A stretch of DNA of 64,000 nucleotides from an uncultured Chloroflexia bacterium (GCA_963760625.1 CAVXDU010000002.1:819869-883868); one strand, 5' to 3'; shown: positions 52,996 to 64,000, counted from the stretch's first letter. Translations and numbers: made by a program. Notes: generated by a model from the letters alone, not told the origin.

Positions 52996-54350
52996 CTAGG
53001 GCACGACCATGCGAATCCGGTAGTTGTTGGTGTCGTCGATGAAGAGCGCCCCGTCGTGAAACGCGAGCCCGGTCGGGTTGCTGACCTTGGCTGAGGACGC
53101 GGGCCCGCAGTCGCCCGAAAAGCCTGGCACGCCAGTGCCCGCCACCGTCGAGACGATGCCCTGCGAGTCGACCTTGCGGACCACATTCCCCTCCCAGTCG
53201 GCGACATAGAGGTCGCCCGCGGGGTCCCAGGCAAGCGCACCAGGGTAGTCGAATGTCGCCTCGAGCGCGGGCCCGGAATCACCCGAATATCCCGACAGCC
53301 CCGAGCCAGCGTATGCAGTGATGACACCCGCTCTGTCGACCTTTCGGATGCGATGACTCTCCGCATCACCCAGATACACATTGCCGGCGGGGTCGACGGC
53401 TACGCCGTTGACCTCGTGGAACGTGGCGTCGACAGCCAGGCCTCCGTCGCCGGTGGAGCCAGGGGTCCCGGTTCCTGCGAAGGCGTGGATGATGCCGTCG
53501 GCATCGATAGTCCGGAAGTTGTTGCTGTCGTCAAAGTAGAGGTCTCCGCCGGGCCCGATGCCGAGCGCATCGGCACTTACCTGTGCGGCCGTAGCTGGTC
53601 CATCGTTACCCGTCGTGCCTGCGAACCCAGTTCCGGCGACGGTACTGACGAGCCCGTCAGGCTCGACCTTCAGGATCCTTCCCGAGCCAAGATCCGGGAT
53701 GTACAGGTTGCCGCTCGGGTCGAGGACAAGACCCCCGGGTGTGCGAAGGTCCGCGGCGTTGGCCCGGCCACCATCACCCGAACCTCCGCCAGCTCCCCCG
53801 GCGACCGCCGTAATGATGCCGTTGTTGTCGATGCGCCGGACGAGGTGGCGGCTCGGTTCGCTGAAGTAGATCGCGCCGGCCGGGTCGACGGTCATCCCGA
53901 ACGCCGGGAGGACAGTCGCCGACGTCGCCGGGCCGCCATCCCCTGAGGAGGAGGGTGACCCGTTCCCCGCAATGGTCACGATGTCGCCGCTGTGGAGCTG
54001 CTGCCCATCCGGACACGCGGTCGGCGGCAACGCCGCGGCGGGTAGGGCGGGCACGCCGTTGTTCGGTCCGACCGTCCGAATGACTGCTCCGCCGACTATC
54101 GCGGTGCCCGCAGTCAGTGCCAGCACCAGCAACGTGATGAGCAGCGCGAACACCAGCCGTGTCGTGAGCACGGGCCGCGCGCGCCAGGTCGTTTCCATGG
54201 TTCCACCTCTCAACGTGACGAGCCAGCCCGGGCGCTGGCGTGTCGAACGTGCGCGCGCGAGCGCGTCCGACAGTCCATCGTCCGGACCGGTGGAAGGACC
54301 TTCCTCCAGCCAGGCGGCGAGCCTGCTGTCGGGGTCGGCGGTCGACTCAT
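52996..54350 (-). CDS. anti-sigma-like single-pass membrane protein with extracytoplasmic NHL-repeat beta-propeller
   Basis: This is the lower part of the 636-aa ORF 52996..54906, intact from ESTADPDSRLAAWLEEGP onward. The transmembrane helix is LVFALLITLLVLALTAGTAIVGG. Six NHL-like blades are present: GDGGPATSA..P.G.AVD..GN.Y..D..N..IR.. and similar. ATG 54350 overlaps the sigma stop (ATGA) but is 1 nt out of frame with the body. An in-frame ATG at 54198 (METTW) is the conservative start. Confidence 0.7.
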
Positions 54351-54906
54351 GCCGTCCGCCCTCCCTCGGCGACCAGGACCGGTCGCGCAGTCCGCCTCGA
54401 GAACGGCGCGCATGGCCAGGGTCGCGTAGTGGAGCCGGGAACGGACCGTGCCCTCCGGGATGCCGAGCGTCTCGGCGATCTCCGGCAGGCGCAGGCCCAG
54501 GTAGTGATGCATCACGAGGACGGCCCGTTGCTCGATGGGCAGCCGCCGGAAGCCGCGCTCCAGCTGGTCGCGGTCTGCCAGGTCGCGGGCCGCGTCGCCG
54601 GGAGCCGCGCGGTCCAGCGGCAGCAGGTGGATCTCCACCGACGCGCTGACGCCGCCGACGGGACTCGTCGTAGCAGGCGTTGACCAGCAGCCGCTGGAGC
54701 CAGGCCTCGAAGCGGCCGGGGTCGCGCAGGCCGCGGATGTCGCGCCAGGCGTGGACGAGGCACTCCTGGACCGCGTCCTGGCTCCGGTCCGCGTCGTGCA
54801 GGATGCGATACGCCAGCGCGAACAGTCGGTCATACGCGGCGCCCGCGAGCATGTCGAATGCCTCGTGATCGCCGCGCTGTGCCCGCTGGACCAGGTCACC
54901 CTGCAT
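54347..54906 (-). pseudogene. ECF (sigma-70 family group IV) RNA polymerase sigma factor, frame interrupted
   Basis: Region 2 is MQGDLVQRAQRGDHEAFDMLAGAAYDRLFALAYRILHDADRSQDAVQECLVHAWRDIRGLRDPGRFEAWLQRLLVNACY (ORF 52996..54906). Region 4 is LERGFRRLPIEQRAVLVMHHYLGLRLPEIAETLGIPEGTVRSRLHYATLAMRAVLEAD (ORF 54210..54899). A third shift gives ..VAEGGRTA and stop at 54347-54349. Confidence 0.75.
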
Positions 54907-55001
54907 CGTCGCTCCGGGATGGAGCGCCGTCTACGCTCCTCACCCAGTATCGACGGATGGGACCGCCCGGATCACTCGATCTTCGCGCCGGGGGCGACGG
55001 G

Positions 55002-62228: not shown

Positions 62229-62344
62229 CGGGCGCGACAGGCACCCGGAACTGCCTGCCGCAGCGAATTCGGGAACCCGACCCGTTCGACACCTCTCATA
62301 GTGGGCAGCGAGGCCAGATCGGCCGCGCACCAACTGGAGGCCCG

Positions 62345-62898
62345 ATGTCCCGGGTCCTCGTCGAACGAGCGATGGCAGGCGATCACGAGGCGTTCTCAGA
62401 GCTGACACGCCTTTCGATCGCGAAGCTCTATGCCATCGCGCGCCTGATCCTCCGGGACGACGAGCGGGCCGAGGACGCCACCCAGGAGGCGCTCGTCTCC
62501 GCGTGGCGCTGGTTCTCCACGCTCCGTGATCCCGACCGGTTCGACGCATGGCTGCGTCGGCTGCTGGTCCATGCGTGCTATCGCGAAGCCGCCGCCGTCC
62601 AAGCGGCGGCGGTACGTCGAGGGCAGCGTCCGACCGATCGCGATGGTCGGCCCCGATCCGGGTGTTGCCATCGCGGACCAGGACGAGCTGGCGCGCGGCT
62701 TCCAGCGGCTCTCGCCCGAGCAACGGGCGCTCATCGTGCTCCACTTCTACCTGGGACTGCCGATGCAGGAGACCGCCGACATCGTCGGCCTGCCGGTCGG
62801 CACCGTGAAGTCCCGACTCTCCCGTGCGACCCAGCAGATGCGCGCGGCCCTCGATGCCGACGCGCGCCTGCCGCTCATCGAAGGGAGGGTCGATGTGA
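62345..62898 (+). pseudogene. ECF (group IV) RNA polymerase sigma factor, frame interrupted
   Basis: ATG 62345 follows GGAGG. Region 2 is MSRVLVERAMAGDHEAFSELTRLSIAKLYAIARLILRDDERAEDATQEALVSAWRWFSTLRDPDRFDAWLRRLLVHACY (ORF 61493..63037). Region 4 is LARGFQRLSPEQRALIVLHFYLGLPMQETADIVGLPVGTVKSRLSRATQQMRAAL (ORF 62526..63248). TGA at 62896-62898 is reached only after a shift in GGGAGGG (62883-62889). Confidence 0.75.
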
Positions 62899-64000
62899 AC
62901 TCCTCCTTCGACTTCGACCGACGACTCGCTGCCTGGCTGGACGACCAGGCGCCCATGCGCGAGCCCGATGGCCTGACCTACGCGGTGCTGGCCCGGACCC
63001 GACGCACGCGCCGGATGCCCCGCTGGGCCAGCCCTGAAAGGTGGCTCTCCATGACTGTCATCACTCGCCCCGCGCTGGCTCCACCGTTGCGGATGGCGTG
63101 GCTTCTGACTCATCCTGCTGCTCGCCCTGGCCCTCGCGGCGGGCGGCGCTATCGTGGGCTCGCGGCTGCTCACTCGCGCCGGTCCCGGCGATGGCCTCCC
63201 TGCCATCGCCGCGATCCCCCAGGGCGACGCGGCCATCTTCGCCTCTGATCTCGGCACGGCGACATCTACACGGTCCGAGCGGACGGCACCGACCTGCGCC
63301 AGCTCACCAGCGGGCCAGGACGTCGACGTCGACCGCGACCTGGTCGCCGGATGGGACGCGCATCGCCTATCGCGTCGCGGCAGGGCGGCGCCGATTCGGT
63401 CGTCGTCATGGACGCCGGCGGCGGCGAGCCGACGATCCTCGCGACGCAGGACACCCCACCAGGCGGGACTGCGACTGGACTGGAGCCTCGCGTGGTCGCC
63501 GGATGGGACGAGCCTCATCTTCCCGACCCCGGTAGGCTGCTCCGGCTCCGACCTGCTCGATCGTCGCGGCCGACGGCTCGTCGCCGCCGACGAAGCTCCT
63601 TGCACCGGGCCTCAACAGCCTCAACGCCGCGTGGTCTCCGGATGGCACGAAGCTCGCGTTCTCGCCAGCGAGCCATCGGGCAACGCCGGGCTGTACGTGG
63701 TGGATGTGACGGCCCTGAAGCCCTCTCCGGCGGTATCCACGGGGAGCTGGTCGCCCGATCTCGCGCCGACCTTGGCAGAGTCGCATTCGGTGGCGACTTC
63801 GACTCAGCCCCAGTGGTCGCCCGATGGCACGCAGCTGGTCGCCGCCGCCGTGACGGAGGGTTTCTTCCTGGTGGACGCCGAGGGCATCTACATCGTGCAG
63901 GCCGACGGCTCTGGTCAGCGTCTGCTGACCGAGCGGGCGGGCAATCCGACGTGGTCACCCGACGGCCAGCAGATCGCCTTCCACCGTACCGTGGACCCAT
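62895..64000 (+). pseudogene. anti-sigma-like membrane protein with PD40 beta-propeller repeats (3' end beyond window), frame interrupted
   Basis: GTG 62895 overlaps the proposed sigma stop (GTGA). The protein opens VNSSFDFDRRLAAWLDDQAPMREPDGLTYAVLARTRRTRRMPRW..LRMAWLL, followed by a transmembrane segment (ORF 62526..63248). Then come AAIFASD and WSPDG blades: LAWSPDGTSLIFP, PQWSPDGTQLVAA and NPTWSPDGQQIAFH. Confidence 0.6.

Follow-up and report, generated by a model that had tools for sequence, protein, structure and literature searches.

Three paralogous modules of ECF sigma factors and putative membrane-bound anti-sigma factors with exchangeable outer domains in an uncultured Chloroflexia bacterium

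In Thermoanaerobacter (Caldanaerobacter) tengcongensis, residues 1-39 of Tt-TolB, a TolB-like membrane protein, bind to and inhibit Tt-RpoE1, a sigma factor of the extracytoplasmic function (ECF) type, which autoregulates from a promoter of the GTTAC-N16-CGTC type (PMC3397946). Among the described anti-sigma classes, the class I anti-sigma domain (ASDI) is a three-helix bundle with a fourth helix and has a mean length of 101+/-33 amino acids (aa), while in CnrY of Cupriavidus metallidurans, a class II protein, helix 1 is in contact with sigma4, and helix 2 with sigma2 (PMC7406223). The main text of the ECF classification 2.0 paper mentions neither Chloroflexi nor propeller-type anti-sigma factors. 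Here we describe three paralogous modules, each composed of an ECF sigma factor gene and a gene for a membrane-bound partner, which lie between positions 52996 and 64000 of a 64-kb stretch of DNA from an uncultured Chloroflexia bacterium (GCA_963760625.1, CAVXDU010000002.1:819869-883868; G+C content ~70%). This whole stretch is called the window below. The three modules are a real and well-delimited set of ECF sigma factors and putative anti-sigma factors, and the signalling family of soil Chloroflexota to which they belong is large and uncharacterised, though conventional in appearance. We consider it likely that the two genes of each module form an operon for an ECF sigma factor and the cognate anti-sigma factor, a single-pass membrane protein with an exchangeable sensor, that the modules are part of a lineage-specific expansion in soil Chloroflexota (Candidatus Limnocylindria), and that the breaks in their reading frames are assembly errors.

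An earlier note on the window, made from the sequence alone, had described three such modules, and six-frame reading found all of them in place. It had also read an overlap between the stop codon of each sigma gene and the start codon of the partner gene, and this amounts to 4 nucleotides (nt) in every case: ATGA at 54350-54347 on the minus strand, ATGA at 59741-59744 and GTGA at 62895-62898. Recurrence of an identical two-gene architecture in three paralogous modules within 11 kb far exceeds chance, and a tblastn search detected no further paralogue in the remaining 53 kb of the window. The three sigma factors, 185-190 aa in length, are ECF (group 4) sigma-70 factors by test, because all of them have Sigma70_r2 and Sigma70_r4_2 matches (E-values from 1e-8 to 5e-14; 2.5e-13 and 5e-14, respectively, for sigma1) and pass the cut-off of TIGR02937, the ECF superfamily model (76.5, 62.1 and 63.7 bits; cut-off 42.9). 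They are paralogues with the N-termini quoted in the earlier note, and the identity of the other two to sigma1 is 47% and 49%. Among the NCBIfam models, TIGR02983 (SigE-family, Streptomyces-type) ranked first or second for each of the three, and the scores of 108.7-115.7 bits against a cut-off of 141.55 leave them outside that family. For sigma2, 1,852 homologues were found at E<=1e-20, the best being 96% identical and likewise 187 aa long, and its closest solved relative is SigW (3e-18).

Related modules were collected by a scan with the sigma alignment in which every species was represented by one genome, and 80 loci were obtained. Nearly all of these are in Chloroflexota metagenome-assembled genomes (MAGs) labelled Candidatus Limnocylindria or Limnocylindrales or in MFD long-read bins registered as 'uncultured Chloroflexia'. 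Relatives of the partners that have a name are entered as 'TolB family protein [Chloroflexota bacterium]' or as hypothetical proteins from Ca. Limnocylindrales, and a soil Limnocylindria genome is therefore the most likely source of the window. The partner gene overlaps the sigma stop codon by 4 nt in 70 of the 80 loci and by 1 nt in three more. A match to a hidden Markov model (HMM) of the N-terminal cytoplasmic region of the partner, hereafter the head, was found in 64 of the 80 downstream genes, and the same motif was recognized by eye in most of the others. Two or three sigma paralogues lie within ~8.5 kb in 20 of the 80 loci, mostly arranged head-to-tail as are modules 2 and 3. An exhaustive search with the head HMM, which has 69 positions, gave 2,341 cluster representatives with E<=1e-3, of which 500 had E<=1e-10. 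Many are 400-480 aa long, and those with a name come almost exclusively from Chloroflexota or Ca. Limnocylindrales. When head profiles were run in word-indexed searches, most of the matches were truncated fragments, and the full-length members became visible through the exhaustive HMM search.

The head motif and a hydrophobic helix are common to the three partners (25 invariant columns in their alignment), and the N-terminus of an orthologue of the module 1 partner, P0019, reads MSRLRDPDARLEAWL. In 73 of the 77 partners compared, a transmembrane (TM) helix begins at about residue 58; it is preceded by 48-75 residues, with a median of 57, in 73 family heads. Across the family, Lys and Arg residues (K+R) number 2.9 ahead of the helix and 1.1 behind it (p 1e-10), and because of this positive-inside bias the head is assigned to the cytoplasmic side. 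Modelling with AlphaFold from 42 head sequences predicted two helices (residues 3-15 and 27-36; predicted local distance difference test score, pLDDT, ~76-81), followed by an extended, basic, juxtamembrane stretch of the form RQRPxW...ERWxPM. The absence of a zinc-binding anti-sigma motif, to which the earlier note had drawn attention, extends to the whole family: none of the 73 heads has HxxxCxxC, none has any Cys, and the head does not belong to the zinc-binding anti-sigma (ZAS) domains. Searches of the partners with the zf-HC2, RskA and RseA models of Pfam gave no match. The only curated families that recurrently, if weakly, match the head/TM region are the NCBIfam anti-sigma model NF052375 (11 of 74 full-length partners and 22 of 55 heads) and NF038083 (CU044_5270 family protein). 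Single weak matches to an RseA model were also seen.

Beyond the membrane helix, the partners differ. The earlier note had assigned NHL blades to module 1 and PD40 blades to the other two; six NHL repeats of ~55 aa are indeed read in the translation of module 1 (E-values in Table 1), and modules 2 and 3 match PD40 with E-values of 6e-19 and 3e-22. When the ectodomains of 77 modules of related genomes were surveyed, at least 17 groups without mutual similarity were found, and the partners that carry them have nothing but the head in common. PD40 occurs in 40 of the 77 modules, an unnamed domain of ~230 aa in 11, and Kelch and DUF6923/SGL-like domains in 3 each; further ectodomains are SnoaL_2, a transglutaminase core, DUF4232 and several without a Pfam match. 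Among 68 full-length representatives, 55 have PD40, 3 Kelch and 1 NHL. The suggestion of swapped sensor propellers on a conserved sigma/anti-sigma chassis thus stands in that head and TM helix are kept while the outer domain is exchanged, and has to be widened in that the exchange is not restricted to propellers, as SnoaL_2, transglutaminase and DUF4232 show. The term cell-surface signalling, which had also been applied to the modules, does not hold in the FecI/FecR/TonB sense: no FecR match was found in the three partners and 74 related partners, with the search for a TonB-dependent receptor confined to the modules.

A pair of partners from L011 and L020 (Table 1) points to a recent replacement of the sensor domain. 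Their sigma factors are 91% and their heads 70% identical, and the partners can be aligned over residues 1-106 only, that is, over head, TM helix and linker (58% identity, E 7e-32); beyond residue 106, L011 continues with PD40 and L020 with Kelch. Over the family, the identity between sigma factors correlates with that between heads (Pearson 0.68; Mantel test, 0/999 permutations).

The regions upstream of the sigma genes also have conserved features. A Gibbs motif search of 71 upstream regions, made with no positional prior, found the motif (T/G)GAAC, followed after ~17 nt by a C-rich block and then ATA. Its start falls 70-82 nt before the start codon in 54 of the 71 regions against 9.3 expected (p 2e-33), and its variants track the sigma subfamilies. 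This shape is that of ECF promoters such as the one mapped for Tt-RpoE1 (PMC3397946), and would fit autoregulation, short of proving it. Between the motif and the ribosome-binding site, a G+C-rich hairpin with a loop of usually 5 nt is present in nearly every leader of the window and of loci L003-L082. The mean longest stem is 6.4 bp compared with 4.8+/-0.15 bp in dinucleotide shuffles (z ~10, as a per-sequence statistic over 55 leaders). The hairpin arms differ between paralogues, with 46 distinct sequences among the 55 leaders, and therefore it is the structure and not the sequence that is conserved. RNAalifold gave no consensus structure for a MAFFT alignment of the 55 5'-untranslated regions (5'-UTRs), in which the loops are out of register, and an Rfam scan of 52-64 kb of the window gave no match.

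Table 1. Positions of module features in the window and of the L011/L020 pair
Feature	Position	Strand	Remarks
Module 1 promoter-like motif, TCGAGTGATCC...CCGTCGATA	54948..54979	-	73 nt upstream of the sigma1 ATG; Gibbs motif in the family register
Module 1 5'-UTR hairpin, GGAGCGT-AGACG-GCGCTCC	54921..54939	-	RNAfold -19.9 kcal/mol, z -2.6
Sigma1, ECF sigma factor	54347..54906	-	in three frames: 54906-54643, 54638-54375, 54379-54350; stop codon 54349-54347
Module 1 partner, whole	54350-52996	-	head 54345-54157, TM helix 54156-54079, then NHL repeats
Module 1 partner, ATG and cytoplasmic head	54157..54350	-	ATG at 54350; frame change within the first few codons
Module 1 TM helix	54079..54156	-	hydrophobic segment LVFALLITLLVLALTAGTAIVGGAVI
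Module 1 six-bladed extracytoplasmic NHL propeller	52996..54078	-	frame-intact; TEN_NHL 5e-33, NHL 6e-15
Module 2 promoter-like motif, TGGAACG...GACGCCTTA	59103..59134	+	conserved in the orthologous contig L001
Module 2 5'-UTR hairpin	59140..59164	+	
Sigma2, ECF sigma factor	59181..59744	+	intact, 187 aa
Module 2 partner	59741..61148	+	head ~59741-59965; TM helix ~59966-60047, with a frame change near 59999; then PD40 propeller as far as 61148, with at least 6 further frame changes
Module 3 promoter-like motif, GGGAACC...CTCTCATAGT	62271..62302	+	placed by eye against the family alignment
Module 3 5'-UTR hairpin	62308..62328	+	
Sigma3, ECF sigma factor	62345..62898	+	frame changes near 62600 and 62880
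Module 3 partner	62895..64000	+	GTG start; head ~62895-63089; TM helix ~63090-63171 (frame change near 63108); PD40
Sensor-swap pair	L011 1021-2457 and L020 4543-5853		partners from different Limnocylindria MAGs

A contig syntenic with the window, L001, is ~85% identical to it and allows the surroundings of the modules to be compared. Between modules 1 and 2 of the window there are a DUF885-family gene (54896-57032, minus strand), which is spread over at least three open reading frames (ORFs), and a lysA-like gene of the diaminopimelate/ornithine decarboxylase family (57008-58323, plus strand), which is in pieces. They are followed by genes for a Phd/YefM-type antitoxin and a PIN-domain toxin (58359-59012, plus strand), which form one 217-aa ORF owing to a frame change; in L001 Phd and PIN are two overlapping genes (8539-8814 and 8811-9395). 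L001 has, at 4350-8500 between lysA and Phd/PIN, one additional module (sigma / 191-aa / 658-aa PD40), encoded on the opposite strand, together with a PIN gene, and the window has nothing at the corresponding place. Between modules 2 and 3, the window carries a HEPN-domain gene (61228-61671, minus strand) and a nucleotidyltransferase (NTP_transf_2) gene (61643-62386, minus strand), which are a HEPN/MNT-type toxin-antitoxin pair; this insert of ~1.07 kb is absent from L001. Since the module content differs between the window and L001, modules are turned over between close relatives.

We infer the following course of events from these data. The 4-nt overlap of stop and start codons would couple translation, so that sigma factor and partner are made together. 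The N-terminal ~57 residues of the partner, namely the Cys-free two-helix head and the basic stretch after it, would lie in the cytoplasm and bind the sigma factor, keeping it inactive. The single helix would span the membrane, and the outer domain, NHL or PD40 here and many others in the relatives, may sense a ligand or the state of the envelope. On a signal, the partner would be inactivated by proteolysis or by a conformational change, and the sigma factor would be released. The free sigma factor may then transcribe its own operon from the GGAAC-N17-C(G/T)(T/C)C-ATA promoter ~75 nt upstream, as well as a further regulon, and the transcript would begin with the conserved 5' hairpin. During evolution, sigma factor and head would diversify together, and the sensor would be exchanged by recombination just past the TM helix.

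We regard the partners as probable anti-sigma factors because the gene coupling is invariant, because the head is the sole conserved part of the partner and diverges together with the sigma factor, and because weak matches to an NCBIfam anti-sigma model recur; the experimental precedent of Tt-TolB is a further reason. Several results weigh against this interpretation. The head has no significant match in Pfam, HMM searches of PDB sequences with two head profiles gave chance hits only, and Foldseek with the head model found no match among PDB folds. The scores against NF052375 do not exceed ~19 bits, far under its cut-off of 100, and the partners are members neither of this family nor of NF038083. 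An AlphaFold model of sigma2 fused to its head, computed without an alignment, had a mean pLDDT of 54, with the head below 50, and yielded no inter-domain error value. Codivergence of sigma factor and head is likewise expected for any two linked genes that are duplicated together. When the pooled promoter matrix was applied to the 64-kb window, the three sites were not singled out, and shuffled sequence scored as high; because this matrix is too degenerate, the promoter call rests on the constancy of position. With respect to the assembly errors, the density of frame switches is uneven, with clean stretches at 12.1-15.3 kb (SulP, 12108-13901, and DUF2252, 13873-15282) and in the NHL body (52999-54348), which is not explained by a uniform error model.

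Instead of being anti-sigma factors, the downstream proteins might be sigma-dependent envelope proteins, such as TolB-like or other periplasmic scaffolds or enzymes, which are merely co-transcribed and whose N-terminus is an anchor or export signal with another role. The relatives are named just 'TolB family protein' or 'Tol biopolymer transport system component', and the head has no significant similarity to a curated anti-sigma family or a solved structure, both of which would be in line with this view. However, a signal anchor needs no conserved cytoplasmic two-helix domain of ~50 residues, and this one, which invariably follows an ECF sigma gene directly and with overlapping codons, is retained in combination with at least 17 unrelated ectodomains and diverges in step with the sigma factor. 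Together with the finding that a protein of identical architecture is a proven anti-sigma factor (PMC3397946), this makes an envelope role alone unlikely. The propellers, moreover, match the TolB model of the Tol-Pal system (TIGR02800) over the propeller repeats only and with 59-91 bits, far under the true TolB cut-off of 343. A different proposal retains the anti-sigma function and takes the head as a truncated, divergent class I domain, similar to RseA/RsiW and subject to site-1/site-2 proteolysis, and not as a minimal two-helix binder of a separate kind. The sequence with which the head starts, DxxL..WLD....P...P..L...V, presumably resembles helices 1-2 of the non-zinc class I domains, and the weak NF052375 matches and single RseA-model matches point in the same direction. 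Against the four helices and 101+/-33 aa of class I domains (PMC7406223), however, there are here 48-75 residues (median 57) before the membrane, with two predicted helices, and the Pfam models zf-HC2, RskA and RseA give no match, so that a class I origin of the head is in our judgement decidedly improbable. It is conceivable, if rather doubtful, that the head is a new and self-sufficient minimal anti-sigma class serving as a plug-and-play adaptor in soil Limnocylindria, in which sigma/head pairs would number in the hundreds and be insulated from one another. Every such pair would have a promoter variant and a 5'-UTR hairpin of its own and be connected to sensors that are freely exchanged, and the whole would make up a natural library of orthogonal transmembrane switches.

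The reading-frame breaks could be taken as biological, with the modules as decaying pseudogenes, that is, redundant paralogues being lost after duplication. Frame changes are present in five of the six module genes, and the turnover of modules between the window and L001 would suit such a process. As the earlier note had observed, only the NHL body (450 aa, 54348-52999) and sigma2 (187 aa) are frame-intact among the module genes; the ATG of the module 1 partner is out of frame with the intact NHL body, both PD40 genes have at least six frame changes each, and the module 3 partner, with several frame changes in its PD40 propeller, continues past the end of the window. However, a codon-position G+C model detects ~104 same-strand frame switches over the window, every 100-400 nt in most parts, and their density is similar or higher elsewhere, including lysA and the DUF885 gene. 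The differences between the window and L001 are dominated by single-base insertions or deletions (indels), in housekeeping genes too; within the DUF885/lysA stretch they account for 31 of 39 events. The codon-position GC bias is kept in every gene fragment. The closest database relatives of the head are all truncated fragments on long ENA contigs, broken in the same way, while orthologues of sigma2 and of the partners in other assemblies are intact. Since the breaks run through the whole window, are mostly 1-nt indels relative to L001 and are missing from orthologues elsewhere, they are most likely indel errors of the long-read assembly, and being window-wide, they say nothing about decay of the modules. 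The pseudogene explanation was rejected on the window-wide single-base indels, and we consider it very improbable. For this window and similar long-read contigs, in which indel errors are dense, claims of pseudogenisation at the level of single genes are unsafe.

Should the head be an anti-sigma domain, the family would be an unusually clear example of how new sensors are built in bacteria: the sigma factor and the part that binds it would diversify jointly, while the outer sensors would be swapped at a point directly behind the membrane helix. The high numbers of sigma factors reported for soil Limnocylindria would in part be explained as well. The family would further provide many small and probably orthogonal sigma/anti-sigma pairs with defined promoters, which could be used in synthetic circuits.

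Compared with the established anti-sigma classes, the modules share with the class I pairs (RseA/RpoE, RsiW/SigW and RskA/SigK) a co-transcribed single-pass partner with a cytoplasmic N-terminus and an extracytoplasmic sensing domain. The class I domain often carries HxxxCxxC, whereas the head found here is half that size and Cys-free, and with its length, two predicted helices and absence of class I Pfam matches it falls outside the class I (ASDI) definition. In the class II proteins CnrY and NepR the cytoplasmic element is short and two-helical, a size and shape that the head is predicted to have; there is no detectable similarity in sequence or fold between CnrY and the head. CnrY uses a separate periplasmic sensor, CnrX, whereas here the sensor is fused in the same polypeptide. 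In architecture, modules 2 and 3 equal Tt-RpoE1/Tt-TolB, where the gene immediately downstream of the ECF sigma gene encodes a membrane protein with a very short N-terminal cytoplasmic region, one TM segment and a large TolB-like C-terminal domain; module 1 has an NHL propeller instead. Tt-RpoE1/Tt-TolB differs in being a single system of Firmicutes, and the large paralogous family, the sensor exchange and the conserved 5'-UTR hairpin are seen here with no evidence of them in that system. As far as the comparison of layouts goes, the architecture of the modules is not unprecedented, Tt-RpoE1/Tt-TolB being its experimentally shown example.

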